Virus genome (UHGV): UHGV-1789659
Length of the DNA: 47,750 nucleotides
Reading direction: 5' to 3' (one strand)
Origin: a virus
Shown: positions 16,352-46,470 of the stretch, piece after piece
Numbering within the stretch: the stretch's first letter is position 1
How the letters are laid out: each line of letters starts with the position of its first letter
Program-made: the position numbers and the translations under genes
The notes under the pieces: model-generated
The model's database searches: none
What the model was told of the DNA's origin: nothing
What the model saw: only the letters and a program-made list of their open reading frames with translations

Positions 16352-16358
16352 CAAGGGA

Positions 16359-28285: not shown

Positions 28286-31200
28286 ATGTGGTACAGGGAA
28301 GGTACTATCACATTTACACAGGGTAGCAATACTCTGGTTGGTGTTGGAACAGCCTGGAACGTAACAGCTAATGGTGTGTTGCCGGGCATGATCGTCATTG
28401 GTCCCGACAATAAGCTGTATGAGATCAAGCGCGTAACAAGCGATACGAATATTGTTCTCTCAGAACCTTATACCGGCGAAACTCAGTCTGAAGTTCCGTG
28501 CCGAATCATTACGACCTATGAAGGCGACTTAACACAGTTTAGCGCGCGCTTTACTGCGCTAATGTCGCGTATGTCGGCTGATTCCAAGTCCATGCGCAGT
28601 TGGTTGACTGCTCTGGATGAGGTGACAATCGAGCGTGAAGACGGTACAGAAGTGACCGTTAAGCCGCTAATGCAGATCGTCAACGAGCACAACGAAAACG
28701 TTGAGTGGTATAAAAATAACACCGACGCGATAGACGCTGCTGGCGACAAAGCTCGTGAGGCGGCGGCCAGTGCTGCCGCAGCAGCAGAAAGCGCCAATAC
28801 CGCTGGAGAAAAAGCCTCTCAAGCGTCTCAAAGTGCATCCGCTGCGGCTTCCTCACAAAGTGCTGCAAGTGCGAGTGCAACTGCTGCGAAAAAATCTGAA
28901 ACGAACGCAGAAGCCGCAAAAGAAGCGGCAGCAGAATCAGCGTCTGTAGCATCGACCAAAGCATCGGAGGCTGCAACATCTGCGTCCAGTGCCTCTGCAT
29001 CTAAGGATGCAGCCAAAGCATCAGAGACTAACGCTTCATCGAGTGCAAACGCGGCGGCATCATCGGCAACAGAAGCTGCAAATTCGTCTAAGGCAGCAAA
29101 AACGTCAGAGACAAACGCAAAAGCATCTGAAAAGGCAGCCGAACAGAGTGCATCGTCTGCAAACAGTTCGAAATCTGCGGCAGAAGCGTCAGCCAGCGCA
29201 GCCTCAGCAAGTGCGGATAGTGCTTCATCGAGTGCAACTGCGGCAGGAAGAGCTGCGGAAAGCGCGTCTTCATCCGCGACAACAGCTACCACAAAAGCGA
29301 CAGAGGCGACGAGTCAGGCTACAGCTGCTAAAAATTCAGCATCGGCAGCAAAAACCTCTGAAACAAATGCAAAGGCCTCAGAAGACAATGCTGCTTCCTC
29401 TAAGGCGGCAGCTGCTGAATCTGCAAGTTCTGCGTCTGCATCAGCCACCTCGGCATCCGCTTCAAAAGATGAGGCGACCAAGCAGGCATCAGCAGCGAAG
29501 GGTAGTGCTTCAACGGCATCCACAAAGGCAACAGAGGCGGCAGGCAGTGCGACGGCTGCATCTCAGAGCAAAACTGCTGCCGAATCTGCTGCGACTCGTG
29601 CAGAAGCTGCTGCTGATCGTGCTGAAGAGATTGCCGGTGCAGTTGCGATGGAAGACGCAAGCCTTACAACTAAAGGTGTTGTGAAACTTAGTAGTGCGAC
29701 AGATAGCACCAGTGAATCACTGGCTGCAACTCCAAAGGCAGTTAAAGCTGCGAATGACAATGCGAATAGCCGATTGGCGAAGAACCAGAATGGTGCTGAT
29801 ATACCAGGTAAGGATACCTTCACGAAAAATATTGGCGCTGGTCGAGCATTTGGAGGCTCTGTAAGCACAACAGCAGGAAACTGGACTACGGCACAGTTTG
29901 TCGAATGGTTGGACTCTCAAGGGGCCTTTAATCATCCGTACTGGATGTGTAAAGGCTCATGGTCGTATGGCAACAACAAAATCATTACTGATACTGGTTG
30001 TGGCGATATTCATCTTGCCGGGGCAGTAATTGAGGTAATGGGGATAAAGTCCGCAATGACGATCCGCGTTACCACACCAACAACATCTAGCGGTGGTGGT
30101 ACTGCTAACGCTCAATTTACTTATATTAACCACGGGACAGATTATTCTCCAGGCTGGCGACGAGACTACAATACAAAATACAAACCTACGCCATCGGATA
30201 TAGGTGCATTATCAACATCAGGAGGGACGGTTTCAGGTCCGTTGTCTGTTACTGGTGGGTTAACTGGTTCATTGAATGGCAATGCGAGTACCGCCACGAA
30301 ATTGCAGACTGCAAGAACTATCGGCGGCGTGGCCTTCGATGGATCTGCGAACATAAATTTGCCTGGTGTAAACACGGCAGGTAATCAGAGCACCACTGGT
30401 AATGCCGCAACCGCTACAAAACTTCAAACGGCAAGAACGATTGGTGGCGTTTCATTTAACGGAACTGCCAACATCGACTTGCCCGGAGTTAACAAAGCTG
30501 GCAACCAAAGCACCACAGGTAATGCTGCTACAGCTACTAAATTGCAGACAGCAAGAACCATCGGTGGTGTTAGCTTCGATGGCACTGCGAATATTAATTT
30601 GCCTGGTGTTAATGCTGCCGGTAATCAGAACACTACCGGTAACGCGGCTACAGCGACCAAGTTGCAAACTGCGAGAACTATTAACGGGGTGTCGTTTAAC
30701 GGCTCTGCGAATATTTCGATACCAACAATTACGTCCAGAGGACGCGTTACTGCGCTCACAGGCACAACGCAAGGCGCTACTACTGGATTGCAGATGTACG
30801 AGGCATATAACAACGGCTATCCTTCGACTTACGGGAATGTGCTTCATCTTAAGGGGGCAACAGCCGTTGGTGAAGGCGAGTTGTTCATAGGTTGGAGCGG
30901 TACAAGTGGCGCTCATGCACCTGTACATGTACGTTCGCGACGAGATACTGATACAGCCAGTTGGTCAGAGTGGGCGCAAGTTTATACGTCCAAAGACTCA
31001 ATTCCAGGTGTCAATGCCACCGGTAATCAGAACACTACTGGCAATGCAGCATCAGCAACGAAGTTGCAAACTGCCAGAACAATTGGAGGTGTATCGTTTA
31101 ATGGTACCGCCAATATTAACTTGCCGGGCGTCAATATAGCGGGTAATCAGAATACGACTGGTAACGCTGCTTCAGCCACGAAGTTACAAACGGCTCGTAC

Positions 31201-31813
31201 TATTGGTGGTGTTAGTTTTAACGGTACAGCCAATATTAACTTACCTGGTGTGAATACGACCGGTAATCAGAACACTACTGGTAATGCTGCAACCGCCACA
31301 AAATTGCAGACAGCAAGGAAAATTGCTGGTGTGGCGTTTGATGGCTCTGCCGATATAACTTTGACTGCGGCTAACCTTAATGCTTATACGAAAACAGAGG
31401 TAACAAACCTTCTCAGTTCCTATGTGAAGAGTAGTTCTCTTCCAAGCATGACTGTGCGAACTTCCTCTGTTTCTGGTGGGGATATGGGCATGAGTTTGTC
31501 CACATTCATTAGCCACCTTAAATCAAATGGGGCATTTAGCAAAAGTTATTGGATTGGCTTTGGCGATGCTATGGGATTCAATGCTGGCAGTATCAACAAT
31601 ATAACGGGATTTGGTGCTGTAGAATTAGCAGAATCCATAATCGAAGTTTTTAATCTACCGAATGGTGATTATACAATTCGTTTAACGACGTCACACAAAG
31701 CTGACTACGGTGGGATTACAAACGCAATCCTCGTTTATCACTACCGCAGTAATAGAAACCCGACAGGTCAATGGCTTAAATTTGCCGGTACTCTTGGGGC
31801 TACAAACAACTGA
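28286..31813 (+). CDS. side tail fibre protein (Stf-like) with Ala/Ser-rich region and tail-fibre repeats
   Basis: AAKTSETNAKAS-type low-complexity region as in lambda Stf (recalled); eight copies of a roughly 40-aa repeat NQ.TTGNAATATKLQTARTIGGV.F.G.ANI.LPGVN. Confidence 0.8.
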   Translation: MWYREGTITFTQGSNTLVGVGTAWNVTANGVLPGMIVIGPDNKLYEIKRVTSDTNIVLSEPYTGETQSEVPCRIITTYEGDLTQFSARFTALMSRMSADSKSMRSWLTALDEVTIEREDGTEVTVKPLMQIVNEHNENVEWYKNNTDAIDAAGDKAREAAASAAAAAESANTAGEKASQASQSASAAASSQSAASASATAAKKSETNAEAAKEAAAESASVASTKASEAATSASSASASKDAAKASETNASSSANAAASSATEAANSSKAAKTSETNAKASEKAAEQSASSANSSKSAAEASASAASASADSASSSATAAGRAAESASSSATTATTKATEATSQATAAKNSASAAKTSETNAKASEDNAASSKAAAAESASSASASATSASASKDEATKQASAAKGSASTASTKATEAAGSATAASQSKTAAESAATRAEAAADRAEEIAGAVAMEDASLTTKGVVKLSSATDSTSESLAATPKAVKAANDNANSRLAKNQNGADIPGKDTFTKNIGAGRAFGGSVSTTAGNWTTAQFVEWLDSQGAFNHPYWMCKGSWSYGNNKIITDTGCGDIHLAGAVIEVMGIKSAMTIRVTTPTTSSGGGTANAQFTYINHGTDYSPGWRRDYNTKYKPTPSDIGALSTSGGTVSGPLSVTGGLTGSLNGNASTATKLQTARTIGGVAFDGSANINLPGVNTAGNQSTTGNAATATKLQTARTIGGVSFNGTANIDLPGVNKAGNQSTTGNAATATKLQTARTIGGVSFDGTANINLPGVNAAGNQNTTGNAATATKLQTARTINGVSFNGSANISIPTITSRGRVTALTGTTQGATTGLQMYEAYNNGYPSTYGNVLHLKGATAVGEGELFIGWSGTSGAHAPVHVRSRRDTDTASWSEWAQVYTSKDSIPGVNATGNQNTTGNAASATKLQTARTIGGVSFNGTANINLPGVNIAGNQNTTGNAASATKLQTARTIGGVSFNGTANINLPGVNTTGNQNTTGNAATATKLQTARKIAGVAFDGSADITLTAANLNAYTKTEVTNLLSSYVKSSSLPSMTVRTSSVSGGDMGMSLSTFISHLKSNGAFSKSYWIGFGDAMGFNAGSINNITGFGAVELAESIIEVFNLPNGDYTIRLTTSHKADYGGITNAILVYHYRSNRNPTGQWLKFAGTLGATNN

Positions 31814-32016: not shown

Positions 32017-32340
32017 ATGTCGAACGAGATGGCGGGCGTTACAACAGAGCAAGTTGAGCGTATTGCCGCGATCGTTGCTCGGGAGGTTGTTGGCAAATTA
32101 GGTAAAGAGCTACGTGAAGAAATTGGCCAGGAGGTCAATGATCAGCTGAAAACCTACTTTGGTGATATGACCCCGGCGCAACATAGTATTCAACACTCTA
32201 ATTTGGACAAACTCCTTAATCGGTTAGATTCCATCTCCAGTGGGTTCTTTGGCGGCATTGTTTCTAAAATAACGTCGTTCATTATTACTGCACTGCTTTT
32301 GGGATTAGCCGCGTATGGCGTAAAAAATGGACTGCAATAA
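32017..32340 (+). CDS. putative holin-like membrane protein (single C-terminal TM helix)
   Basis: 107-aa ORF with strong RBS (GGAGGAAAAC) directly upstream of the lysis genes; C-terminal hydrophobic helix ITSFIITALLLGLAAYGV. Confidence 0.35.
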   Translation: MSNEMAGVTTEQVERIAAIVAREVVGKLGKELREEIGQEVNDQLKTYFGDMTPAQHSIQHSNLDKLLNRLDSISSGFFGGIVSKITSFIITALLLGLAAYGVKNGLQ

Positions 32341-32353
32341 CAGGAGATCAAGG

Positions 32354-33046
32354 ATGAAGACTCCGAGAGGCATTCGTAATAATAACCCCGGTAATCTTGA
32401 TAAAGGATCACCGTGGCAAGGTCTGGTTGCGAATCCAGACGAACCGCGCTTTTGCACGTTTAAAGACCCTGTTTGGGGGATTCGTGCGCTGGCGGTGACT
32501 CTAATTACCTACCACGACAAACGTCGCGCAAAAGACGGCTCAAGTATCGATACCATTCGTGAAGTTATTGAACGTTGGGCACCGCCGAATGAAAACAACA
32601 CTGACGCCTACATTAATGAGGTGTCTAAAGCCGTTGGTGTAACCGCAGACATGATCATCGATCTGCATGATTACGACATCCTTAGACCTTTGGTTGAGGC
32701 AATCATTCGCCACGAGAATGGTCGAGGTCCACTAAAAACGCTGAACACCTGGTATGCGGCAGAAGTTATTGAGGAAGGTCTGCGTCGAGCTGGCGTCGTT
32801 AAGCCGGTGAAAACCGTGAAGGCTGTTCCTGTAACTAAAGAAACCGCAGGCGCAACTGTCACAGCAGGTATTGGTCTGGCGCAGCTTGCCGATGTTATGC
32901 CGCAGGTTTCCGCTGCTATGGATAAAGCACAAGGTCATATCTCTAGCGGGGATACAGTACGCATCATCTTCGGTATTGCCACTATTGTTGTGGCAGGATT
33001 CATTGCCTGGTCGCAGGTAAGAAAACACCAGAAAGGGATGGTCTAA
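32354..33046 (+). CDS. putative endolysin / cell-wall-active protein with C-terminal TM anchor (function uncertain)
   Basis: 230 aa from ATG 32354 (RBS CAGGAG); position between holin-like and spanin genes; conserved-looking GIRNNNPGNL box; C-terminal hydrophobic helix. No catalytic motif recognised by eye. Confidence 0.35.
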   Translation: MKTPRGIRNNNPGNLDKGSPWQGLVANPDEPRFCTFKDPVWGIRALAVTLITYHDKRRAKDGSSIDTIREVIERWAPPNENNTDAYINEVSKAVGVTADMIIDLHDYDILRPLVEAIIRHENGRGPLKTLNTWYAAEVIEEGLRRAGVVKPVKTVKAVPVTKETAGATVTAGIGLAQLADVMPQVSAAMDKAQGHISSGDTVRIIFGIATIVVAGFIAWSQVRKHQKGMV

Positions 33047-33261
33047 TATGCTAGGCAGCCTGATGATAAAGCTAAAAGTTGCTTTATTCATTGCCTGGTC
33101 GCAGGTAAGAAAACACCAGAAAGGGATGGTCTAATATGCTAGGCAGCCTGATGATAAAGCTAAAAGTTGCTTTATTCATTGCCTGGTCGCAGGTAAGAAA
33201 ACACCAGAAAGGGATGGTCTAATATGCTAGGCAGCCTGATGACAAAGCTAAAAGTTGCTTT
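32998..33261. repeat. 88-bp tandem repeat, three copies (two identical, third slightly diverged) across the endolysin/spanin junction
   Basis: Unit ATTCATTGCCTGGTCGCAGGTAAGAAAACACCAGAAAGGGATGGTCTAATATGCTAGGCAGCCTGATGATAAAGCTAAAAGTTGCTTT repeats at 32998, 33086 and 33174. Confidence 0.9.
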
Positions 33262-33475
33262 GATTACGCTGGCTGCCGTTCTTTTCGTTCTGGTCGGCGC
33301 TTACACGATGGGTGGGAATGCAGCACGACGAGCAATGGAAGAGAAGGCAAAACAGGAAGACAGAAAACGACTTCAAAACACAGTGGAAGTGGTGAATGAG
33401 ACGAGCAATAAAATACGTCAGAAAGATGCTTCTGCCGTTCATCGTGAGTTGTATGATAAGTGGGTGCGTCATTAA
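33224..33475 (+). CDS. i-spanin (Rz-like)
   Basis: N-terminal TM helix (ALITLAAVLFVLVGAYTMGG) followed by a charged segment; an embedded lipoprotein ORF overlaps the 3-prime end. Confidence 0.65.
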   Translation: MLGSLMTKLKVALITLAAVLFVLVGAYTMGGNAARRAMEEKAKQEDRKRLQNTVEVVNETSNKIRQKDASAVHRELYDKWVRH

Positions 33476-33611
33476 ACCACAAACCGCCAGCGTATTGTTC
33501 TGCGATGGAGCTGAGCCTATCTATATCAGCAATAATGATGTGATGACCGAAGAAACCGAACGCCAAATCCTTTTTCACAATACGATGGGAGAGAGAGTTT
33601 GCGGTTGGTGA
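33426..33611 (+). CDS. o-spanin (Rz1-like lipoprotein), overlapping the i-spanin in another frame
   Basis: Signal peptide with lipobox MLLPFIVSCMISG-C; in-frame ATG at 33426 inside the ORF-track ORF 33396..33611. Confidence 0.6.
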   Translation: MLLPFIVSCMISGCVIKPQTASVLFCDGAEPIYISNNDVMTEETERQILFHNTMGERVCGW

Positions 33612-33619
33612 TGCGAAGT

Positions 33620-33637
33620 TCCCCTCACTTGAGGGGA
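33620..33637. terminator. hairpin between convergent spanin and toxin genes
   Basis: CCCCTC-ACTT-GAGGGG stem-loop; flanking T/A runs are weak. Confidence 0.4.
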
Positions 33638-33642
33638 GTACA

Positions 33643-34164
33643 TTATTCTTCGAACAATTTTTCGATAGATTTTGTAGGATAGAACAAAGAACGCTCGTTG
33701 TTACCAACCAGCTGGATAAAGCCTAAACTTTTATAAAACGCCTTGGCTTTGTCATTTAACGCCTCAACGAAAAGTCCATGAATGCCTACAGCAAGAGATG
33801 CATTGTACACAACCCGCATTGCATGTGTTACAAGCATTGAGCCAAATCCTTGACCTTGAAGGGACTTGTCCAAAGCCAGCCTACCCAAAGTAACACTTGG
33901 AACATTCCGATAAGGAACCTTCTTTTGCTGGCTTCTTGAAGGTAAGGACTCCTTTTCAAAGCAGCTGCCTGACAAAGTGTAATACCCTAACACTTTTGGT
34001 CTGTCTTCTTTAGTGCAAAGCACATAAGCGCGAAGAATTTTTCCCTCATGCTGCCTTTTTAAGTGGTTGGTTAAAAAGGCATTTAGTGATTCTTCACCGC
34101 AATCAAAACCATTCAAATCATAATCTTTCTCTCCAGAGAAAATTTCTATCTTTATATTATCCAC
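33643..34164 (-). CDS. GNAT-family acetyltransferase toxin (TacT/KacT/AtaT-type)
   Basis: GNAT motif A QGQGFGSMLV; about 170 aa; immediately downstream of a DUF1778-type antitoxin ORF on the same strand; GTG start. Confidence 0.75.
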   Translation of the reverse strand: MDNIKIEIFSGEKDYDLNGFDCGEESLNAFLTNHLKRQHEGKILRAYVLCTKEDRPKVLGYYTLSGSCFEKESLPSRSQQKKVPYRNVPSVTLGRLALDKSLQGQGFGSMLVTHAMRVVYNASLAVGIHGLFVEALNDKAKAFYKSLGFIQLVGNNERSLFYPTKSIEKLFEE

Positions 34165-34171
34165 GAGTAAA

Positions 34172-34441
34172 CTACTCCATGCTTTTCAGACGATCAGCAG
34201 CTCGTTTCAGCTTGTCGTTCGGTGCCGGAGGATTGCTTATAGCGTCCATAACCAGATTCCAGGATTCTTCATTCAGAACTAGTCTACGGTGTTGCTCTAT
34301 AACTTTCACGGCACGTTCAGATGCACTGCTAACCATAAACTGAGTAATGCTCTGGTTAGACATTGCGGCAGCTTCCTCGATGATGCTTTTATCGTCATCG
34401 GTTAATCTCAAATCGATGCGCTGCTTTTTTAGTGCTGACAT
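34172..34441 (-). CDS. DUF1778-type RHH antitoxin (TacA/KacA-like)
   Basis: Start set at MSALKKQRIDLRLTDDDKSI after an AGGAGG RBS (plus-strand CCTCCT at 34446-34451); the N-terminal RIDLRL plus helical region is typical of DUF1778 antitoxins paired with GNAT toxins. Confidence 0.7.
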   Translation of the reverse strand: MSALKKQRIDLRLTDDDKSIIEEAAAMSNQSITQFMVSSASERAVKVIEQHRRLVLNEESWNLVMDAISNPPAPNDKLKRAADRLKSME

Positions 34442-34710
34442 GTATTCCTCCTGATGGCCGTGATGTAGGAAGGCCATCAATCTCCTCTGTTCAAACTGAG
34501 TTTTCGACTCAAAAATTACTTTAAAAGGCTATAGCCCATTACGTGTGCATTATCAAATTGTGTACGGCATATCACCGTACTTGTAATATAGAGGTCATTG
34601 TTACTTTTTTCAACAGACAAATACAAGCTATGATTGCCAATTGTTAATCACAACCTACCATTTAACCTTTACACCGCAGCCGTAGGCATTTAGGCTATAT
34701 CACATATAAG

Positions 34711-34724
34711 AAAACAAGTTGTTT
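34711..34724. promoter_or_regulatory. AAAACAAGTTGTTT operator-like site upstream of parA
   Basis: Near-palindrome shared with sites at 5876 and 37512. Confidence 0.35.
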
Positions 34725-34759
34725 CAGACGATAATTATATACGCAAAGGGAACTCTCCA

Positions 34760-35428
34760 ATGACCAAGATCTTTGTGGTTGGCGGCACAAAGGGCGGGCC
34801 TGGCAAATCCACCGTTGCCCAGCAAATTGCCGTTTGCCTGAAAGTCAAAAAGAAGAAGAAGGTTTATATCACTGATATAGATATTCAGCGCACGACAACA
34901 AGCTGGTGTGAAGACCGTCGGCAGAACGAAGACCTTGAGCTGATTCCTTTTGCATACGTTCAGGATGACATCATTAAGCACCTAAAATCGCTTCAGGGTA
35001 GAGCTGAGTTTGTCGTGGTAGATGCTGGTGGCTTTGACTCCGAAATTCAGCGACAAGCGATGCTGATGGCCGACGTTATCATTATCCCGCTGCGTCCTAA
35101 GCGTCGTGATTTGAAATCTCTGCGTGACATCGATCCTATTATCGACAATGTTCGTAATGTAAACAATAAAGTGAAGGTCCGCGCTGTCATGAACCAGTGC
35201 CCGGCTTTGCCATCACAAGTGTCTCGCATTCTGGCGGCTAAAGAGATTGTTGAGACGTTTGGCATCGAGTCTGCGCCAGTCAATCTATATAACCGCAACG
35301 TCTATGATGATGCGGAAGAGTCTGGTCGTTCTATCTTTGAAATGACCGGTAGCGAGCGCGACAAAAAGGCGGAAGCCGAGTTTGAAGAATTTGTAGATTA
35401 TCTGTTGAGTCTGGAGGAAGAAGAATAA
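34760..35428 (+). CDS. parA: ParA-family partition ATPase (small, type Ib-like)
   Basis: Deviant Walker A GGTKGGPGKST at the N-terminus; 222 aa; followed by a coupled small DNA-binding protein gene. Confidence 0.85.
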   Translation: MTKIFVVGGTKGGPGKSTVAQQIAVCLKVKKKKKVYITDIDIQRTTTSWCEDRRQNEDLELIPFAYVQDDIIKHLKSLQGRAEFVVVDAGGFDSEIQRQAMLMADVIIIPLRPKRRDLKSLRDIDPIIDNVRNVNNKVKVRAVMNQCPALPSQVSRILAAKEIVETFGIESAPVNLYNRNVYDDAEESGRSIFEMTGSERDKKAEAEFEEFVDYLLSLEEEE

Positions 35429-35787
35429 TGTCCATGAAAATGGGTGACCTAGCAAAGCGCAAAGAGCCTGATGCACCGGCTAAGAACACAACTCCTTTGC
35501 GCCAACCAGTCAGACCACAGGGACGCCCGACTCGTGGCAAAGAGAAAATTAAAAGCCGCACAATGTCACTGGAGGACGAATACTTCGAACTGCTGGAGAT
35601 GATGAAGTTCATCCCTCGCTTCGAGAAATTCACCCGCTCTGATGTGATTCGTGCTGCTATTTTCCATCTTGCGGAGAAGACACCGCAGGAAATCGAGGAC
35701 ATCGTGAAACTTAACGAGGCGATCACAGCTGCCGACGTTACGATGCGTACCGATGAAATTAAACGAGAGTTGATGAAGAAAGGTTGA
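35428..35787 (+). CDS. ParG-like RHH centromere-binding protein
   Basis: 119 aa; basic flexible N-terminus and C-terminal beta-alpha-alpha pattern (RTMSLEDEYFELLE...SDVIRAAIFHLAEK); TAATG coupling to parA. Confidence 0.6.
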   Translation: MSMKMGDLAKRKEPDAPAKNTTPLRQPVRPQGRPTRGKEKIKSRTMSLEDEYFELLEMMKFIPRFEKFTRSDVIRAAIFHLAEKTPQEIEDIVKLNEAITAADVTMRTDEIKRELMKKG

Positions 35788-35788
35788 C

Positions 35789-35818
35789 AAGAGAAGGCGT
35801 GATTAGACGCCTTCTCTT
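35789..35818 (+). terminator. 12-bp-stem hairpin after the partition operon
   Basis: AAGAGAAGGCGT-GATTAG-ACGCCTTCTCTT read directly. Confidence 0.5.
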
Positions 35819-35831
35819 AAAAGGTATATTT

Positions 35832-36572
35832 ATGCTTTACAAATATGTTGGAAGTAGCGTCCCGGAAGACACAATAAATTATTTAAAGTATTACTTAGAA
35901 GATGGGAAAATTCGAGATTTCAACGATCCTGCCGAGTTTAAAGTTAATTTTGATTATGATGCTGATATAGACGCCATTAAGAAAAGATTTTTTGAGCTTT
36001 GGCCTAATCATCACAATGATGAATTTGAACGCTGGTTATTGAGTCAAACAGAACATAGTCGCAGTTTTGATAACTATATGATTAGAACGACTTTTCTGCA
36101 GCGTCGGGGAGTTATTTGTTTGACAAAAAGACCAGATAATTATCTTATGTGGTCGCATTATGCGCATTCTCACTCTGGTTTTTGCATCGGATTTGATGAT
36201 GGTTTTATAAATGCGTTTGATGATGTTTTTTTTGTTCGCGGTGAGGTCAAATATTCCTCTGATGTTCCGGTTGTAAATTTTTTTACCGACTCAGCTAAAG
36301 AGATTGCAGCGGCTCTTTGCCTAAATAAAAGCGATGTCTGGGAATATGAAGAGGAGGTTAGAATCGTAACCGAGAATTGTGGCGTGAAATTATTTGATAA
36401 ATCCTTAATTAAGGAAATAACAATAGGTTGTAAGGCTAGCAGTCAACTTCAAAATTATGTTCATCAACTATTTGATTCAGGTATCGAAATCTACAAAATG
36501 AAGTGCCCTACAGGATCGTATAAGCTGGAAAAAATAAGATTAGAGAAAGATACTGATTTTCTTGGATACTAG
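35832..36572 (+). CDS. AT-rich orphan gene; hypothetical protein (possibly DUF2971-like, unverified)
   Basis: 246 aa from ATG 35832; visibly AT-rich versus neighbours; conserved-looking core LMWSHYAHSHSGFCIGFD...WEYEEEVRIV; bounded by hairpin and palindrome. Confidence 0.5.
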   Translation: MLYKYVGSSVPEDTINYLKYYLEDGKIRDFNDPAEFKVNFDYDADIDAIKKRFFELWPNHHNDEFERWLLSQTEHSRSFDNYMIRTTFLQRRGVICLTKRPDNYLMWSHYAHSHSGFCIGFDDGFINAFDDVFFVRGEVKYSSDVPVVNFFTDSAKEIAAALCLNKSDVWEYEEEVRIVTENCGVKLFDKSLIKEITIGCKASSQLQNYVHQLFDSGIEIYKMKCPTGSYKLEKIRLEKDTDFLGY

Positions 36573-36596: not shown

Positions 36597-36645
36597 CCTG
36601 CTTCCGTATATAATAAGTATCTTAGTATATATATACGGAAGCAGG
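36597..36645. repeat. 49-bp palindrome (copy 2) with AT-rich AATAAGTATCTTAGTAT core
   Basis: Arms CCTGCTTCCGTATAT / TATACGGAAGCAGG; same family as 5757-5811. Confidence 0.8.
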
Positions 36646-37511: not shown

Positions 37512-37526
37512 GAAAACAATTTGTTT
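37512..37526. promoter_or_regulatory. GAAAACAATTTGTTT operator-like near-palindrome upstream of the helicase gene
   Basis: AACAA-T-TTGTT inverted repeat; same family as the sites at 5876 and 34711. Confidence 0.35.
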
Positions 37527-37545: not shown

Positions 37546-38886
37546 ATGACCGAACTTTGCCATACAGGACGCGGGCTGTCCGAAGAGTTTGATGAAGATT
37601 TCCAGAACAGACTGACGGCATATTTTTGTCGTGATCACGAGTTTCTTACTCGTGCGGGAGATCTGGTTGTGCCTAGCCAATTTGCCAATGCGGCCAATGC
37701 CATATTGGTTAATATGGTTTCGGGCTATTACCGTATGTACAAGAGCGCGCCCTCTTCATCTGCAATTCTGGATATGCTTAAGCGTGCGAAACGCGATAAG
37801 ACTATCCGTGAGGAACTATTCGCCGATGTTGTTGCTGCGTTTAAGCGCATCCTTGCAGAAAAATTGTCCGATACCTCGTACATGGTTGACCAGGTATCAA
37901 CCTTCGCAAAAAGCGTAGCGTTTGATGATGCTCTGATTAAGGCTGCTGAACTGAAAGAGAAGGGCGACTTTCAGGGGGCGATGGCAATCATGGCCAAGGT
38001 TCAGCAGATTGGATCGAACGAAGCGACCGGAATCTATGACTACTACACCTCCGCAAGTGAGCGATTGAAAGCGCGTGAATATGAGGCTTCAGAGGAGTAT
38101 GTACCAAACAGTATTACAACTGGACTCCCTCTTCTCGATAGGTTGCTGTACCAAAAAGGCTGGGCAAAGCGCGAAATGGTGCTCTTCATGGGGTTCGCTA
38201 AATCCGGGAAATCGACCGCAATGGGTGAGTTTTCCATAAACGCAACGCTTGCTGGCTACAATGTTCTGTATCTCTCGCTGGAGGTTCACACCAACATTTT
38301 GTCCGACCGCTTTGATGCAAGATTGTCGGAGACGGAAATGTCCAAGCTGGTGGAACGGCGCGATGAAGTTCATCGTAAGTTGGCAGAGTTGGGAGCCACT
38401 AAGGGGATTGGTAGTTTGTGGGTGGTTGAGCGCCCGTCAGGAAGTATGTCACCGGCAGATCTGGACCGTATGCTTAACAGCATGAAAGCCAATGGCATGG
38501 TGCCTGACATGGTTGTTGTCGACTACGCAGATTTGATGCGTGCCAGTTATGACCTTCGTGATGATCGCGCCAATATTCGTAGTATCTACACCGATTTACG
38601 TGCTCTTTATGACAAACATAACGTTGCTGGGATCACGGCATCGCAGACAAACCGTGAAGGTGGCGCGTCAGAAGTTGCCACAATGATGCACGCTGCCGAC
38701 AACATCGAAAAAGTACGTATTGCTGACCTGGTAATAACGATCAACAAAACCGAAGAAGAAGAAGCGAAAGGAGAGGCTCGTCTCTACTTTGCTGGTTCGC
38801 GTAACCAGCAGGGAGGGATCAGCATTCGCGTTAAACAAAACCTCGAACAAATGCGCTTCATTGAGCGAATCTTAGACGTTACCTAA
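37546..38886 (+). CDS. DnaB-like replicative helicase
   Basis: C-terminal RecA-like domain with Walker A GFAKSGKST, Walker B VVVDYADLM and ITASQTNREG; N-terminal helical domain; about 445 aa. Confidence 0.8.
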   Translation: MTELCHTGRGLSEEFDEDFQNRLTAYFCRDHEFLTRAGDLVVPSQFANAANAILVNMVSGYYRMYKSAPSSSAILDMLKRAKRDKTIREELFADVVAAFKRILAEKLSDTSYMVDQVSTFAKSVAFDDALIKAAELKEKGDFQGAMAIMAKVQQIGSNEATGIYDYYTSASERLKAREYEASEEYVPNSITTGLPLLDRLLYQKGWAKREMVLFMGFAKSGKSTAMGEFSINATLAGYNVLYLSLEVHTNILSDRFDARLSETEMSKLVERRDEVHRKLAELGATKGIGSLWVVERPSGSMSPADLDRMLNSMKANGMVPDMVVVDYADLMRASYDLRDDRANIRSIYTDLRALYDKHNVAGITASQTNREGGASEVATMMHAADNIEKVRIADLVITINKTEEEEAKGEARLYFAGSRNQQGGISIRVKQNLEQMRFIERILDVT

Positions 38887-38891
38887 AAAAT

Positions 38892-38916
38892 AAGCGTGGA
38901 GAACACCTCCACGCTT
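38892..38916 (+). terminator. hairpin after the helicase gene
   Basis: AAGCGTGGAG-loop-CTCCACGCTT; no strong T-run. Confidence 0.35.
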
Positions 38917-38968
38917 GATTCATTGCGTGAAACAACTTTTCTTTTGCCAAACCACAAAAGAAAAACAC

Positions 38969-40150
38969 ATGAGCCTTTATGTTATATCAACATTTAGGTT
39001 GGTCACAATATTGCCTGTTAAAAGTGGAATTATCGTGAGCGAGCTGAAAGAGCTAATTGCCGAATTAGATTTTGAACAATGGTTGGATACTGAAGGTATC
39101 GTTTATCGACGTGGAGGCGTGAGTGCTCGCGGTCGTGAAGTGAATATCAAGGAGTGTCCGGTATGCGGCAGCTCCAACTGGAAGGTATATTTCAATCTGA
39201 CCAGCGGCGTCGGTAAATGCTTCGCTGGTGATCATCCCGAAGAGATTCAGTTCAATAAGCTGGTCTTCCTCAAGCACCACAGCGGTAAATCACGACGACA
39301 GTTCGAGGAATATGTGCAGAACGCTCTTCTTTCCCAGGGGTGGGCACCAAAGAAAGAAGAGATAGTGCTTGCAAGCACAGTCGAGTTAGAGGGACCACTT
39401 GCACTCCCTCGTCATTACGAACTTCCTATAGATGGCCGTCTTCCAGACTATCTGGTTGAACGAAACATATCGCCTGAAATGGCAAAGTATTTTGACCTAC
39501 GATACTGCGTCGAAGGCAAGCACGCTTATGTTGATCCGTATACAGATCAGGTTAAAGGACAGATATTCGATATGCGAATACTGATACCGGTTTACGATCT
39601 GGATGGGGTAATGAAGACATTTCAGGGACGAGACATTACCGGTACAGCAGAACGCCGCTACCTCTTTCCTATGCAGCTTCCAGCTTCAGGTAAGTTTCTC
39701 TACAACGGCCATAATGCGGTCGGCAAACAGACTGTAGTTGTCTGTGAGGGGGCGTTCGATGTTATGGGGGTTAAACGAGCTATTTTTGATGAAGAAACAT
39801 TACGTGATTACGTGGAACCGATAGGAACGTTCGGGATGCATCTATCTGGTAACACCACTCAGGATGCAGAAGATCAGTTAGGCGCGTTCCTGACGCTCAA
39901 GGCGCGTGGATTACGTAATGTGATCATGATGTGGGATAGTGAAAAGCAAGCTATACGCAACACGATGGCCGCAGCCAGGCGACTGACCAGTATTGGTCTT
40001 AATGTCAAAGTTGCGTGTTTGGGCGAGGAAGGACTCGACCCCGGCGATGCGACACCGGGGCAGATTATCAAAGCCTACTATTGCGCAAAACCTTACTCAC
40101 GACAGCTTGAACTTTTAAGCAAGGTAAAAGGTATAGCAGCATTAGTTTGA
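38969..40150 (+). CDS. DNA primase (zinc-ribbon plus TOPRIM)
   Basis: CPVCGSSNW...CFAGDH zinc-ribbon-like N-terminus; TOPRIM VVVCEGAFDVMG. Start uncertain: ATG 38969, or GTG 39036; ORF track opens at 38915. Confidence 0.7.
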   Translation: MSLYVISTFRLVTILPVKSGIIVSELKELIAELDFEQWLDTEGIVYRRGGVSARGREVNIKECPVCGSSNWKVYFNLTSGVGKCFAGDHPEEIQFNKLVFLKHHSGKSRRQFEEYVQNALLSQGWAPKKEEIVLASTVELEGPLALPRHYELPIDGRLPDYLVERNISPEMAKYFDLRYCVEGKHAYVDPYTDQVKGQIFDMRILIPVYDLDGVMKTFQGRDITGTAERRYLFPMQLPASGKFLYNGHNAVGKQTVVVCEGAFDVMGVKRAIFDEETLRDYVEPIGTFGMHLSGNTTQDAEDQLGAFLTLKARGLRNVIMMWDSEKQAIRNTMAAARRLTSIGLNVKVACLGEEGLDPGDATPGQIIKAYYCAKPYSRQLELLSKVKGIAALV

Positions 40151-41395
40151 ACCAGTATTAGTCACGTAAACATTGACCGAAAATGATTTAACTTCTGTGT
40201 TGAAGTTGTCAGTCATTACCGCGAGGTAGGCATTCTTGGTATCTCTGAATTGCTTCAGGATGATTTGAACGTTATCGGTGCAAACAAACGAGGTAGCCAG
40301 ATTGCCTCCTTTCTCTGAAAAATCCTTCAAGAAGGTGCAGTCAACTTTGCCATCATTAGCGGTAAAGACGGCATCATCACCCTGCCAGGTAAATGTTGCG
40401 TTAACGCCTTTATCAATGGATTTAGCAATAAGTCGCTGAGTGTCAGATTTGGCATTTTGCTGTTTTGAAGGCGAACGGAACGTACCTTTTGCTTTCATTG
40501 CAGCAACGTTTTCGCAGCCCGTTTCGTCATCTTTATCGCAAGCAGCTTGGTAAAGCTCTGATGCTTTCCGATAATCCTGTTTGACGCCCAATCCCTTAAG
40601 ATACATGTAACCAAGGTGGTTCATGGCATAATCATTTCCTAAGCTGATTGCTTGTTCTAAAAGACTTCTGGCCTTCGAATAGTCTTTTTTTATACCTTCT
40701 CCATGCATCAACTTGTATCCAAGCGCGCTCATGGCGTTATTATTTCCTAATTCAGCTGCTTTCAAGTACCACTTAATTGCCTCTTTATTGTTGCGCTTAA
40801 CAGCAACACCATCGTCGTACATAGAGCCTAGCCCATACATTCCTGCGGCATTTCCACTATCCGCAGCCTTTTTATAAGATTTAAATGCTTTCTTGTAATC
40901 TTTCGGAACTCCCTTACCGTATTGATATAAATATCCCATATAGGCAAGCGAAGGTATATCACCAGCTTCTACTGCTAGTTTGTGATATTTTAAAGCAGCT
41001 TCTGGGTCCTCCTTTCCAGTCCAACCTCGTTCGTATATAACGGCAAGATTATGGTAAGCACTGCCGTTGCGAGCATTTCCTGCTAGTTTGTAGTACTCAA
41101 CGGCCTTATTTAGATCTTTATCTACTCCCTTCCCAATTGTGTACATAACCCCAAGCGCATAATATGCTACTTTATCTCCCTTTTCTGCGGCGAGATCGAT
41201 CCACTTCTTGGCCTCTACTAAATCCTCATCAAAGCCATTAGCCCCATCCAAATAATTTGTCCCTAACGCACTTTGTGCTGTGGTATCTCCTGCGGTGGCG
41301 GCGTCGATCAGCGTTTGTTTATTATCTGCGTTAACGTATCCAGGGCCGAAAAGCAAAGCTAATGCCAGCAACGATGAAGGTTTTATGAGTTTCAT
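40142..41395 (-). CDS. secreted Sel1-like repeat (SLR/TPR-like) protein
   Basis: Signal peptide MKLIKPSSLLALALLFGPGYVNA; about eight 36-aa Sel1-type repeats; C-terminal 110-aa non-repeat domain; 3-prime end overlaps the primase stop convergently. Confidence 0.75.
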   Translation of the reverse strand: MKLIKPSSLLALALLFGPGYVNADNKQTLIDAATAGDTTAQSALGTNYLDGANGFDEDLVEAKKWIDLAAEKGDKVAYYALGVMYTIGKGVDKDLNKAVEYYKLAGNARNGSAYHNLAVIYERGWTGKEDPEAALKYHKLAVEAGDIPSLAYMGYLYQYGKGVPKDYKKAFKSYKKAADSGNAAGMYGLGSMYDDGVAVKRNNKEAIKWYLKAAELGNNNAMSALGYKLMHGEGIKKDYSKARSLLEQAISLGNDYAMNHLGYMYLKGLGVKQDYRKASELYQAACDKDDETGCENVAAMKAKGTFRSPSKQQNAKSDTQRLIAKSIDKGVNATFTWQGDDAVFTANDGKVDCTFLKDFSEKGGNLATSFVCTDNVQIILKQFRDTKNAYLAVMTDNFNTEVKSFSVNVYVTNTGSN

Positions 41396-41622
41396 ATTTT
41401 ATGTTCTGTTGATATAGGATGAACAGTTTAGACGCGGCAAGCGTCAAGTGTGCGAAAAGGGTACTTAAATTTAGTTAATCTGTCAGCTTTGATAATTTAT
41501 GAACTGTAAAGTTGATGTGATATTAATCACCGATGGAAATAATGAGCTATGGAATTATTGTGACACGGCTCGTGTTTTGGTTAACTAATACCTACGATAA
41601 ATATAAATAAAGGGAAGTCAAA

Positions 41623-42036
41623 ATGAGCAAAAAGAAGTTGATTTTAACAGGTGCTTTATTGTCGTTGTTTGCATTAGTTGGGTGTAAGCCTACAGACGAG
41701 AAGGCTATTACTCTGGGCCAACAGGCAATTGCGGATGATATGAAAGATCCCACGTCGGTGATGTTTAGGAAAGATAAGTTTGTCAGGACTGATCATGATG
41801 ATGGGAGTGTGACAGGCTTTGTGTGTGGTGAATTAAACGCCAAAAATGGCTTTGGTGCATACGTGGGCTATCACTCATATGTTGTTGAACTCGAAATGAA
41901 GCCAAAGGGCATGTTTTCAAAAGGGGTGGTATACAAAATCCTATCGAAGTCGTTGGCACCTAATGATCCTCATGATTTACAGCGTTATAAGCAGGTCTAC
42001 AGAAAGATGTGCAACAGTGAGGCTGTAGCTCATTAA
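41623..42036 (+). CDS. putative lipoprotein
   Basis: Signal peptide with lipobox LVG-C (MSKKKLILTGALLSLFALVGC); RBS AAAGGGAAG. Confidence 0.6.
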   Translation: MSKKKLILTGALLSLFALVGCKPTDEKAITLGQQAIADDMKDPTSVMFRKDKFVRTDHDDGSVTGFVCGELNAKNGFGAYVGYHSYVVELEMKPKGMFSKGVVYKILSKSLAPNDPHDLQRYKQVYRKMCNSEAVAH

Positions 42037-42099
42037 AGGTGAATGCTGGGCTGAGGATATGCCCAGCATCTTAGTATAAAGAACTATTGCACCTAAAAT

Positions 42100-42118
42100 G
42101 ATAAGTAGATACATACTT
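42100..42118 (+). promoter_or_regulatory. GATAAGTAGATACATACTT conserved motif
   Basis: GATAAGTA-family motif upstream of the 42162 gene. Confidence 0.4.
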
Positions 42119-42161
42119 AAGTTTTTGTAAGAATACTTTCATCCGTTAGCTAGGAGTTGGT

Positions 42162-42944
42162 ATGAAAGAAGAAATTAAGAGATTAGCCTGCAACATCATT
42201 GATAAAACTGGTTTAGAAATCAGCGAGAGCAATCGGCTAGACATCATTGAAAAAGCCGTCAATACGGCAATGGATCATATCGCCACTCGTTTGGTCGAGA
42301 TCCCTCTACCGGGGCTACCTTATCTGAAGGTTAAGTTGTGCGTATGGGGCGAACCTGCACATGCACGACGTTCTGCATTAGTTGTTTTTGTACGCAAAGA
42401 AAACTTACGAACTCTAAAAGTGCAGGTTGGGGCGTGGTTTGATGGCAGAGTCATCTATACAGATACCATTATCTGTCCTCCAGGTGACGAACATATTGAA
42501 GCCGTTATTCGAGAATCAATTCGAGCTATGCGTAGTTTAGCTTTGCTGGAAGACAAGCAAAACTTTGAATATTACTTGCTGTCGGTAAAAGCTGAACCAA
42601 CATTGTCTCTGAAAGCCGATTTCGTCACCCCGACAAATCTGTTGGAGGTTTTGATTAATAAAGGGGCTAATGATGCTGTAAACCTAATCAGGGAGAGCGA
42701 ATATTCGACTCTTTGGGACATGTGCAAAAGCCAGTTGGATCTTGTGCATATCATTGTTGATGCGGGTAAGGCGTGTGATGGCATAATGGCGGAATTTGCT
42801 GGGAAGATGGTCAGGATTGCTAACGAATTACCGATGATAGAGCAAGAGGCCAAATCATACGCCACCAATCATGTCACAGAGCTTCTTGCCCCCTATCGCT
42901 TAGAAAGCGATCAGCGCAAGATGATTAGCTGGGGAAGTTGGTAA
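42162..42944 (+). CDS. hypothetical protein
   Basis: 260-aa ORF with AGGAG RBS; no motif recognised. Confidence 0.5.
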   Translation: MKEEIKRLACNIIDKTGLEISESNRLDIIEKAVNTAMDHIATRLVEIPLPGLPYLKVKLCVWGEPAHARRSALVVFVRKENLRTLKVQVGAWFDGRVIYTDTIICPPGDEHIEAVIRESIRAMRSLALLEDKQNFEYYLLSVKAEPTLSLKADFVTPTNLLEVLINKGANDAVNLIRESEYSTLWDMCKSQLDLVHIIVDAGKACDGIMAEFAGKMVRIANELPMIEQEAKSYATNHVTELLAPYRLESDQRKMISWGSW

Positions 42945-42976
42945 GCTCTCTGTGTGTCGTTTTTTACGCAAATAAT

Positions 42977-42995
42977 GATAGGTAAGCACAAGATT
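42977..42995 (+). promoter_or_regulatory. GATAGGTAAGCACAAGATT conserved motif
   Basis: GATAAGTA-family motif upstream of the 43012 ORF. Confidence 0.35.
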
Positions 42996-43011
42996 ATTTC
43001 TGGCGGTAATT

Positions 43012-43482
43012 GTGAAAGCTGATTTGTCAAAAATCCCTTCTATTTCAGGAAATAACGGTTATTCACTTCGTTGTGAGGAAGTAAAGATAAACGGTGAGTC
43101 GGCATATTGCAGCTACTCCGTTTGCCAGCACACCATTGTTGCCTTCAAAGAAAACCGTCTTCCTCGAACGTCTTTCCAGTCGTGCGCAACCGCTATTAAA
43201 GCAGGCAAATGCAAGGCATTAAAAATGATGGTTGAAGAGATTCGTAAAGGAGAATCTCTGTATTTCGAAGATATGACCGCACTCATTAGGGAGGTTGAAG
43301 AACGGAATAAACAAGCCAGAACTATAAAACGAAAACGTGACAGTGTAACAATTAATAGCATGGTTAAGAAGATCACCACATCACAAACAGCGATCACTGA
43401 CGTGTATGCGGCGTTGCTTGAAGAAACAACAAAAGAAACACATGAGCAAATCGATCAACATATGGAGGCAAAACAACAATGA
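43012..43482 (+). CDS. hypothetical Cys-containing protein (GTG start per ORF track)
   Basis: 156-aa ORF whose stop overlaps the ligase start (ATGA); start codon uncertain. Confidence 0.4.
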   Translation: MKADLSKIPSISGNNGYSLRCEEVKINGESAYCSYSVCQHTIVAFKENRLPRTSFQSCATAIKAGKCKALKMMVEEIRKGESLYFEDMTALIREVEERNKQARTIKRKRDSVTINSMVKKITTSQTAITDVYAALLEETTKETHEQIDQHMEAKQQ

Positions 43483-44801
43483 AAAAGTTGATCGCACTTA
43501 AGCATAAGCTGGACGAAATGAAAGCTATGGGAACCAATGCAAAAAAAGAGGCATTGGCCAACATGGATGACTTCGAGCAAAGCATGGTTTCATTGATGCT
43601 CAACCCTTTCATCCGTTTTGGGGTAAAGAAATACAAAGTGGCAGAGCCGCTTAGTGAGTCCGTCCCTAGTGACGAAAAAGCCATTGATATACTGAATAAG
43701 CTGGCCTCTCGCGAGCTAACGGGGAACGCAGCAATAGCTGCTGTTGAGTCTATCGTGGCGTCAATGTGCGCCGATGGGCAGGACGTGTTCCGTCGTTTCC
43801 TCTTAAAAGACCCGAAAGCGGGCGTTGGGATTAGCCTATGCAACAAGGTTTTTGAAAATCCCATTCCGAAATTCGAGGTGCAGCTGGCGTCGCCGTATAA
43901 AGAAAAAGGCGACAAATACCCCTTCAAGCCAAATCCTAAAGCAAAATGGCCGATGATTGGCAGCCTTAAGCTCGATGGTTTGCGAGTAATTTGCGAGGTT
44001 ATTGTTGACGAGGAAGAGGTTAACTTCCTTTCTCGTACTGGTAATCCAATCACGTCTCTCGATCACCTAAAGCCAGCCATGCTCGAATTAGGCAAACTTT
44101 CAGGCCACAAACACATCTTCTTCGATGGTGAAGGAACTGCCGGTTCATTTAACCAGTCCGTATCTGCATTGCGCAAAAAGAACGTGCAGGCAATTGGCGC
44201 TATTTATCATGTTTTCGACTTCTTCCTACCGGAATGGCGGACACAGGCTAAATCCAAAGAGTATGCAAAGACAGGTATGAAGCTGAAAGAGCGCCTGGCT
44301 ATGCTCGTGGCGTTGTTCAAAAACGATCGCAGTGAAGGCTACACACAAGACATTCACCTGCATCCGTTCTATATCATCCATAGCCACGAAGACTTCATCG
44401 AACGCTTCATGAAACGCCTGGACGATAACGAAGAAGGGGAGATGGGCAAAGATCCGAACTCTGTTTACGAGTTTAAACGTACCCGCAGCTGGTGGAAGTT
44501 AAAAGACGAAGATTCAGAAGATGGTGAAATTATCGACTTTGAGCCGGGCGACCCGGACTCTGGTTTTGCCAACACACTTGGAAAAATTGTTATTCGTCTT
44601 GAAAACGGCGTCATCGTTCGTGCGAGCGGCATTAAGCATAAATATCTGGACGAGATCTGGAACAACAAAGAGAAGTACCGTGGTCGTATTGTCGAGGTTC
44701 ATTGTCACGAGAAAACACCGGACGGCAGCTTACGCCACCCACGACTGAAATGGCCGCGTTGCTTACGCGATACAGAAGATCGAATCGGAGATAAAGAATG
44801 A
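43479..44801 (+). CDS. ATP-dependent DNA ligase
   Basis: Adenylation motif I KLDGLR (lysine in SLKLDGLRV), motif III FFDGEG, motif V WWKLK, in correct order and spacing. Confidence 0.8.
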   Translation: MKKLIALKHKLDEMKAMGTNAKKEALANMDDFEQSMVSLMLNPFIRFGVKKYKVAEPLSESVPSDEKAIDILNKLASRELTGNAAIAAVESIVASMCADGQDVFRRFLLKDPKAGVGISLCNKVFENPIPKFEVQLASPYKEKGDKYPFKPNPKAKWPMIGSLKLDGLRVICEVIVDEEEVNFLSRTGNPITSLDHLKPAMLELGKLSGHKHIFFDGEGTAGSFNQSVSALRKKNVQAIGAIYHVFDFFLPEWRTQAKSKEYAKTGMKLKERLAMLVALFKNDRSEGYTQDIHLHPFYIIHSHEDFIERFMKRLDDNEEGEMGKDPNSVYEFKRTRSWWKLKDEDSEDGEIIDFEPGDPDSGFANTLGKIVIRLENGVIVRASGIKHKYLDEIWNNKEKYRGRIVEVHCHEKTPDGSLRHPRLKWPRCLRDTEDRIGDKE

Positions 44802-44977
44802 TGCTCGGCTGGATGATTGCATTTTTAGCGGTTGGTTTTTTAATCGGTATTGTGGTGATGTCCAGTTGCATCAATGACTACATTAAAAGCGGTGTTATAG
44901 AACGACGCGGTCGTATTTATCGCATTGTAGAAATAACCCACACAGTGAAGGAGATTAAGGATGATCGTATTAAGTAA
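44798..44977 (+). CDS. small single-TM membrane protein (59 aa)
   Basis: ATGATG start overlapping the ligase stop; hydrophobic N-terminus MMLGWMIAFLAVGFLIGIVVM; falls below the ORF-track size cutoff. Confidence 0.4.
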   Translation: MMLGWMIAFLAVGFLIGIVVMSSCINDYIKSGVIERRGRIYRIVEITHTVKEIKDDRIK

Positions 44978-45176: not shown

Positions 45177-45199
45177 TTCCATACATCTAATTAGCTTTT

Positions 45200-45612: not shown

Positions 45613-45621
45613 AAATACAAT

Positions 45622-46466: not shown

Positions 46467-46470
46467 AATT

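Follow-up and report, generated by a model that had tools for sequence, protein, structure and literature searches.

A predicted plasmid-maintenance region with back-to-back toxin-antitoxin and type Ib partition modules in a phage-plasmid of the SSU5 supergroup

UHGV virus genome UHGV-1789659, the 47,750-nucleotide stretch of DNA analyzed here and referred to as the window, contains at positions 33643-35787 a block of four genes that very probably constitutes the plasmid-maintenance region of a phage-plasmid of the SSU5 supergroup. Two independent modules are arranged back to back in this block: a minus-strand operon for a GNAT toxin and its DUF1778-type antitoxin, and a plus-strand operon for a type Ib ParA ATPase and a 119-amino acid partner, which is presumed to be a centromere-binding protein. 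The four open reading frames described by the initial annotation of the window are all present between these outer coordinates, and the family matches of the toxin, the antitoxin and ParA exceed chance by a wide margin. Purifying selection acts on each of the four genes, as seen from ratios of nonsynonymous to synonymous polymorphism (pN/pS) of 0.04-0.24. The element, its ParA gene and the KacT-like toxin-antitoxin pair are already known in the literature and in public annotations, and the discovery value of the block is small for that reason. The present analysis adds a KacA-type operator, the boundaries of the toxin-antitoxin cassette, a re-reading of the ParA partner, a conserved core upstream of parA, and a shared promoter-operator architecture.

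The 4-kb region that includes the block aligns end to end, at 97-98% identity, with circular E. coli plasmids that are non-mobilizable and ~110 kb in size, for example pLAO7 (NZ_OP242221) and pLF82, and is equally close to Escherichia phage Cyrano (OV696614), which is the same element as pLF82. The block is syntenic with Salmonella phage SSU5, and the segment encoding ParA and its partner shares 86% identity with SSU5 and ~80% identity with Klebsiella relatives. Synteny and identity also indicate that the SSU5-type features, namely siphovirus structural genes, lysis genes and own replication genes, are present in the element. The identity to the plasmids and to Cyrano, together with the similarity to SSU5 and the Klebsiella relatives, therefore assigns the window by sequence to the SSU5 (pSLy3/SSU5) supergroup, a group of phage-plasmids reported by Pfeifer et al. 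(PMC7969092), with E. coli as the host. Cyrano produces siphovirus particles and is present at ~5.5 copies per cell (PMC9928086).

A search of 5,426 complete E. coli genomes located the junction between the lysis genes and the toxin-antitoxin pair in 245 of them, on a plasmid in all 245 and on the chromosome in none; this result covers the family of relatives rather than the particular isolate from which the 47.7-kb window derives. Chromosomal integration, the situation with which the initial annotation had contrasted its own interpretation, is thus without an example at the level of the family. That interpretation, a phage-plasmid carrying a maintenance block, is borne out by the identity to plasmids and to Cyrano, by the synteny with SSU5, and by the exclusive plasmid location of the matches. 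The flanks are likewise as described at the outset, with lysis genes on one side (holin, endolysin, Rz and Rz1 at 32017-33611, left flank; endolysin phrog_873, E 6e-89) and replication genes on the other (DnaB-like helicase, primase and DNA ligase at 37546-44801, right flank). To the right of the partition genes, the order is a DUF2971 gene, a hypothetical gene, and the genes of the DnaB-like helicase, the primase and the DNA ligase.

The lack of an integrase had also been cited in support of the plasmid state. No integrase domain is present among the window proteins scanned, and the observation therefore stands for the window itself. Close relatives, however, encode a tyrosine recombinase ~1-2 kb past the position of the right end of the window: CYRAN_44 of Cyrano (41090-42574; Phage_integrase, E 6e-10) and WP_000797845 of pLAO7 (16163-17647), annotated as an integrase and located beside a helix-turn-helix (HTH) “putative repressor”. 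As the recombinase of the relatives lies just outside the window, a missing integrase is not valid evidence for the plasmid state. For an element whose occurrences are all plasmids, dimer resolution is a more likely function of such a recombinase than integration.

The toxin gene (33643-34164, minus strand) starts with GTG and encodes a protein of 173 amino acids. The protein matches Acetyltransf_7/1 in Pfam (E 5e-8), and its matches in PDB are AtaT (6gts, E 5.8e-80; 70% identity over 172 residues) and KacT (5xun, E 1e-74). The charged tRNAs that serve as targets of acetylation by AtaT are Gly-, Trp-, Tyr-, Phe- and initiator Met-tRNA. The acetyl-CoA loop QGQGFG at residues 103-108 conforms to the family pattern Q/R-x-x-G-x-G/A with G108 retained, and alignment to AtaT reveals that the catalytic tyrosine, Y144 (Y144 in AtaT, Y145 in KacT), and the tRNA-contact residues F30, H34, R37, S76, S78, K81, K82, Y85 and R95 are kept; the roles of G108, Y144 and the tRNA contacts are those established for AtaT (PMC7595197). 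Changes relative to AtaT are observed at three tRNA-contact positions (R40E, K77R and K79Q), and the set of aminoacyl-tRNAs targeted by this toxin may therefore differ from that of AtaT. The 173-amino acid protein is expected to be toxic. We also note that the window carries three tRNA genes at 46393-47279 (Asn-GTT, Thr-TGT and Ser-TGA) and that relatives encode a methionyl-tRNA synthetase elsewhere, which is of note beside a predicted toxin of charged tRNAs.

The gene of the antitoxin, a ribbon-helix-helix (RHH) protein of the DUF1778/TacA type, is located directly upstream of the toxin gene in the same operon, with a gap of 7 nt between the antitoxin stop and the toxin start. Its open reading frame was listed as 34172-34480; translation actually begins at the ATG at 34441, with AGGAGG in front of it at 34447-34452, and the gene accordingly covers 34172-34441 (minus strand) and encodes a protein of 89 amino acids, as in RefSeq. 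The protein matches Pfam TacA1/DUF1778 (E 8.6e-26) and is 80% identical to KacA (5zgn, E 6.6e-42). The residues R8, D10 and R12, which read operator DNA in KacA (PMC6698736), are all retained. The Pfam, AtaT/KacT and KacA matches uphold the original assignment as a GNAT toxin with a DUF1778 antitoxin and narrow it to the AtaRT/KacAT clade, and the pair has every sequence-level defining feature of a GNAT/DUF1778 type II toxin-antitoxin system.

The KacA-type operator of the operon, GTACGGcatatcaCCGTAC, is situated at 34562-34580 and occurs once in the window and once in Cyrano. It reads GTACGG-N7-CCGTAC, with the half-sites and 7-nt spacer of the crystallised KacAT operator, for which the 27-bp oligonucleotide AAATGTACGGTTATTAACCGTACATGA was used (PMC6698736). 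The best promoter-like site in the region, with 10/12 matches, is a sigma-70-type promoter of the antitoxin-toxin operon at 34585-34613 (minus strand), composed of TTGAAA, 17 nt and TATATT. The operator starts 5 nt downstream of the -10 hexamer; this position mirrors the layout of kacAT, in which the transcription start falls within the palindrome (PMC6698736). In a diverged allele, the toxin gene of which is 89.5% identical, both operator half-sites and both promoter hexamers are kept and the operator spacer varies. In the same allele comparison the toxin has a pN/pS of 0.08 and the antitoxin one of 0.04-0.13. The low pN/pS values and the kept half-sites and hexamers therefore indicate that the toxin-antitoxin module is intact and under selection. 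Two further repeats were observed in front of the antitoxin gene, both of them kept in the diverged allele: an inverted repeat, GATGGCC-N12-GGCCATC, at 34452-34478 in the antitoxin 5' leader, directly upstream of the antitoxin Shine-Dalgarno sequence, and a second palindrome, GGCTATAGCC, at 34527-34536. These repeats may represent a translational or a secondary operator element.

The distribution of the two modules is unequal. Among the plasmids of PLSDB, parA and its partner gene occur as a pair in 775, with Klebsiella, Escherichia, Enterobacter and Salmonella among the hosts. The toxin-antitoxin pair occurs in only 145 plasmids, and almost all of these are from Escherichia. Homology to relatives that do not have the toxin-antitoxin pair ends at ~33593-33608, after Rz1, and restarts at 34653. 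These sharp boundaries and the 145 versus 775 distribution therefore identify the toxin-antitoxin pair, at the sequence level, as a 1.04-kb accessory cassette (~33612-34652), the slot of which is flanked by the lysis and partition modules and varies in content. In the toxin-antitoxin-free relatives the slot is occupied by an unrelated forward-strand gene pair of the SSU5_031/032 type, for which no Pfam or PADLOC match was obtained. A G+C-rich hairpin at 33618-33639 lies between the Rz1 stop (33611) and the toxin stop (33643), where the two operons converge; this terminator-like site is the probable terminator and left edge of the cassette.

By analogy with the characterized systems, the antitoxin, either alone or as an antitoxin4-toxin2 complex, would bind GTACGG-N7-CCGTAC at the transcription start and repress the operon, and would also block the acetyl-CoA site of the toxin. 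Loss of the antitoxin, for example in a plasmid-free daughter cell, would allow the toxin to acetylate the amino group of charged tRNAs, so that translation stops. Such an arrest of translation in plasmid-free cells would penalise loss of the element. The proposed role in addiction, i.e., stability of the plasmid state, draws support from the Yersinia plasmid pMT1, in which a RelE/ParE-Phd/YefM pair is located divergently beside a P1-type parAB (42638-45666 of pFra/pMT1). The layout of a toxin-antitoxin pair beside parAB thus recurs with unrelated parts, which argues for a stability role.

The pair could instead serve mainly as cargo of benefit to the host or in defence (a “moron”), acting through persister-like arrest or abortive infection, with stabilisation as a side effect. 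The accessory nature of the cassette is consistent with this possibility, being present in 145 of ~775 relatives and sharing its slot with unrelated gene pairs in other lineages. Expression is also compatible with it: Cyrano lysogens transcribe the pair strongly, the toxin and antitoxin reaching 35- and 60-fold over the local background, and the pair is listed among the morons of that phage (PMC9928086). A candidate defence gene of the PDC-S31 family is present on the other side of parAB. Part of the literature on the related systems describes persister-like growth arrest under stress by TacT and KacT and links KacAT and TacAT to drug tolerance. On the other hand, neither the toxin nor the antitoxin matches any PADLOC defence model, a negative result that extends to ParA and its partner, and a type II pair placed divergently beside parAB is the classic layout of plasmid stability, found again in pMT1 with RelE/Phd. 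Taken together, cargo or defence as the main function appears unlikely, and addiction is preferred here; the two kinds of role are not mutually exclusive.

The second module begins with parA (34760-35428, plus strand), which encodes an ATPase of 222 amino acids. The protein has a deviant Walker A motif, K11-GGPGK-S17 (pattern KGGxxK[ST]), and no N-terminal DNA-binding domain. Its Pfam matches are MipZ, AAA_31 and CbiA, with MipZ at the top, its best NCBIfam match is ParA_partition (E 4e-33), and its best solved relative is ParF of TP228 (E 6e-11); the ParF and ParA_partition matches both begin at residue 9. The initial description of a type Ib-like ParA is confirmed by the small size of the ATPase, the deviant Walker A motif, the missing N-terminal domain, and the matches to ParF and ParA_partition. 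The pN/pS of parA is 0.08-0.24.

The partner gene (35428-35787, plus strand, 119 amino acids; pN/pS 0.08) starts with an ATG that overlaps the parA stop by one base (TAATG), from which translational coupling of the partner to parA is predicted, and the two genes are kept together in 726 plasmids. The protein belongs to phrog_5111, to which no function is assigned. The family is very small. An exhaustive HMMER search of 1.84 billion proteins recovered 18 representatives, all belonging to it, and a set of 5.8 billion sequences contains 25 clusters; all homologues that carry a source name are from enterobacteria. Within the family alignment, an N-terminal MGDLAKR and a basic arm, PQGRPTRGK, are kept, and the linker is variable and of low complexity. 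A further kept segment, I-K-S-R-T-M-S-(helix)-F-T-R-S-D-V-I-R-A-A-I, resembles the succession of strand, helix A and N-capped helix B in an RHH domain, and a putative RHH is placed at residues ~41-82, followed by two further C-terminal helices. AlphaFold monomer models, with predicted local distance difference test (pLDDT) scores of 65 and 74, have a disordered N-terminal stretch of 47 residues and helices at 48-59, 70-82, 86-97 and 101-117.

The initial annotation had described the partner as a small RHH protein and as ParG-like. A small gene right after parA is indeed present. The RHH label rests on signals that are weak but consistent: domain-only segments of two homologues match Pfam RHH_1 in register, with 21.1 bits for P0027 and 17.3 bits for P0035 against a gathering cut-off of 20.5 bits, and the partner of the window matches the archaeal RHH family aCcr1 (E 2e-4). 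The likeness to ParG holds for the architecture, that is, a small protein with a disordered N-terminus encoded after a type Ib ParA, but not for homology. The partner was rejected as a homologue of ParG (PF09274), as there is no Pfam match and hhalign of the partner family gave a probability of 0.1% both against ParG 1P94 alone and against a 17-member ParG alignment.

The non-coding region upstream of parA contains a conserved 73-bp core (34653-34725, plus strand), which comprises the parA promoter region, the palindrome AAACAAGTTGTTT and the right edge of the cassette. The core is 97-99% identical to SSU5, a Citrobacter plasmid and a Klebsiella plasmid, in which parA is 78-84% identical; synonymous sites of parA are largely saturated in these comparisons, and two thirds of them differ in the most distant of the compared relatives. 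The core is single-copy in the genome, and its k-mers show no systematic recurrence in Cyrano. As judged from its conservation, the core is the best candidate for a partner operator or centromere. The partner would bind the centromere, most likely within these 73 bp, and the N-terminal tail of the partner would stimulate ParA, so that the ~five plasmid copies are shared to both daughter cells.

The 13-bp palindrome AAACAAGTTGTTT (AAACA-N3-TGTTT) lies at 34712-34724, in the 3' part of the core. Exact copies of AAACA-N3-TGTTT are located at 5851-5863, 5876-5888, 34712-34724 and 37514-37526 of the window, where ~0.06 would be expected by chance, and 11 copies are present in Cyrano. In the Cyrano promoters inspected, the palindrome is situated ~13-14 nt downstream of an extended -10 element (TGnGATAAT), and it is generally found 12-41 nt upstream of a start codon, including at the terminase, helicase and parA promoters. 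At least ten extended -10 promoters carry this 13-bp palindromic operator, among them the helicase and terminase promoters. AAACA-N3-TGTTT thus looks like the candidate operator of an element-wide regulon that includes the parA promoter. If this is true, partition would be wired into the lysis-lysogeny circuitry of the phage rather than purely autoregulated.

A second dispersed motif, the 16-nt TATATACGGAAGCAGG, forms inverted pairs at 5757/5796 (5757-5811) and 36597/36630 (36597-36645) with arms 17-23 nt apart. Its four copies in the window compare with 0.23 expected by chance, and three pairs are found in Cyrano. One pair of the window is upstream of the terminase operon and the other is between the DUF2971 gene and the next gene; pMT1 has a perfect TATATACGGAAGCAGG pair upstream of its terminase. 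The motif may be bound by a regulator, form a processing hairpin or be related to packaging. A dispersed centromere of the N15 or KorB style, built from the palindrome or from TATATACGGAAGCAGG, was considered and rejected. Both motifs persist, some of them perfectly, in pMT1, which lacks this ParA and its partner and uses P1-type ParAB, and they are therefore not dispersed sites of the partner.

Several observations weigh against the reading of the parA operon as a partition module with an RHH partner. The partner itself has no significant Pfam, PDB-sequence or fold match, and a partner-family profile run against PDB sequences gave chance matches only. Its AlphaFold monomer contains no beta-strand, although a strand would not be expected from the monomer model of an intertwined dimer. 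A repeat search found no array typical of type Ib systems near parAB. Cyrano has a second ParA/MinD-like ATPase (CYRAN_99) and two ParB_N proteins encoded elsewhere, and another system could therefore contribute to segregation. Finally, the operator at the parA promoter is common to at least ten other promoters of the element and to pMT1, which has no partner; parAB must therefore be regulated at least partly by another factor.

These observations lend themselves to an alternative in which ParA and its partner form a regulatory or positioning module (a global repressor of the omega/KorB kind, or a MipZ-like system) and partition is carried out by the MinD-like and ParB_N proteins. The lack of a recognised centromere, the MinD-like CYRAN_99 together with the ParB_N proteins, and the position of MipZ as top Pfam match of ParA would all fit such an arrangement. 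The ParB_N proteins are encoded in the window by two adjacent genes for ParB N-terminal domains at 2541-3239 and 3206-3907, upstream of the packaging genes; they adjoin a divergent DEAD/DEAH-box (UvsW-like) helicase gene at 917-2476 (minus strand), are kept in Cyrano and pMT1, and are probably not partners of the type Ib ParA. However, pMT1 keeps the ParB_N genes and the motifs and yet carries a separate P1-type parAB, which argues that the type Ib pair fills the partition role elsewhere. The partner can also be dismissed as the binder of the dispersed palindrome, which is retained where the partner is absent, and the best NCBIfam match of ParA is a partition model. A regulatory or positioning module is accordingly considered improbable. 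Partition by the type Ib pair is further consistent with the gene content of pMT1, which shares the phage backbone, has no type Ib pair and has a P1-type parAB instead; this is as expected if such modules are interchangeable and the other lineages rely on the type Ib pair for partition. The reading of the 119-amino acid protein as a RelE/ParE-type toxin, with ParA as an orphan ATPase, comes from the depositor's label of CYRAN_29 in Cyrano only and is effectively refuted, as searches of Pfam, NCBIfam, PDB and PADLOC with E values up to 10 gave no such match to the protein, its model of a disordered N-terminus and four helices is not the alpha/beta RelE fold, its gene is coupled to parA with no antitoxin candidate present, and its weak matches go to RHH families.

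The 119-amino acid gene, annotated as “hypothetical” in RefSeq and as “RelE/ParE toxin” in Cyrano, is thus most likely a centromere-binding partner of an orphan family. More tentatively, and with less than even confidence, we propose that the partner founds a family of type Ib centromere-binding proteins that has so far escaped recognition and is restricted to SSU5-type phage-plasmids. In such a protein, MGDLAKR would act as a ParA-stimulating peptide, followed by an AT-hook-like GRP arm, an RHH domain and a C-terminal helical hairpin; the centromere would lie within the 73 bp upstream of parA, and the parA promoter would belong to the element-wide regulon.

The partner stop codon is directly followed by a perfect hairpin with a 12-bp stem (35789-35818), which has no T-run. 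The next gene (35832-36572, plus strand), co-oriented with parAB, encodes a DUF2971 protein (Pfam E 4e-10), for which PADLOC gives a match to PDC-S31 (E 3e-38), a candidate defence family. In SSU5 two extra genes are located between the DUF2971 gene and the partner gene, and the Cyrano homologue is transcribed 6-fold over background in lysogens (PMC9928086). This gene is regarded as adjacent cargo. A Sel1-repeat gene (40142-41395, minus strand; Pfam Sel1, E 5e-56) follows the primase gene on the opposite strand; it is present in pLAO7 and not in Cyrano, and the locus is another site of variable cargo.

Two repeat regions were observed to the left of the block. An 88-bp tandem repeat of 3.0 copies with 99% matches (32998-33261) includes both the endolysin stop and the Rz start. 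The repeat lengthens the region by 176 bp and creates two short hybrid open reading frames, and the endolysin and Rz genes are intact. The matched span is 625 bp in every listed complete E. coli relative versus 801 bp here, consistent with a single 88-bp copy in the relatives, and the triplication could be an assembly artefact or, if real, a rare duplication. The 1175-amino acid tail-fibre gene contains two arrays of 120-bp repeats (30299-31332; ~3 copies each, 72-75% matches), which encode “TARTIGGVSFNGTANI...GNQNTTGNA” units.

The recognisable KacA-type operator makes the regulation of the toxin-antitoxin cassette predictable, and the slot of the cassette, flanked by the lysis genes and parAB, is prone to swaps. 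One operator is common to the partition, replication and packaging promoters. These features provide handles on the upkeep of elements that are common, and sometimes carry resistance, in E. coli, Shigella, Salmonella and Klebsiella.

Comparison with known systems begins with the closest relatives. Cyrano and pLAO7 have the same gene order from the tail fibre to the ligase and the same toxin, antitoxin, ParA, partner and DUF2971 genes. In contrast to Cyrano, the window alone has the threefold 88-bp repeat, and it has the Sel1-repeat gene that Cyrano lacks; the “RelE/ParE toxin” label that Cyrano gives to the partner (CYRAN_29) finds no support here. The toxin-antitoxin pair belongs to the same family as AtaR-AtaT of E. 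coli O157:H7 and KacA-KacT of K. pneumoniae, with G108, Y144, R8, D10 and R12 kept and with the operator half-sites and spacing of KacAT, but it is situated on a phage-plasmid beside parAB, whereas those systems are chromosomal.

The partition pair resembles ParF-ParG of TP228 in its small Walker-type ParA without an N-terminal domain and in its small partner, which has a disordered tail and a putative RHH domain. This is in contrast to the size of the partner, which has 119 amino acids against 76 in ParG, two extra C-terminal helices and a basic arm containing GRP; an upstream array of tetramer boxes in the style of ParF-ParG was not recognised at parAB. Yersinia pestis pMT1/pFra, of the same supergroup, shares the phage backbone and the dispersed regulatory motifs, and likewise places a type II toxin-antitoxin pair divergently beside a partition operon, but with RelE/Phd and a P1-type ParA/ParB. 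The protein families of P1 phd-doc and parABS are unrelated to those of the window, P1 having a type Ia ParA and an HTH ParB; what the two elements share is the textbook combination of addiction with active partition (PMC7969092, PMC11652158).

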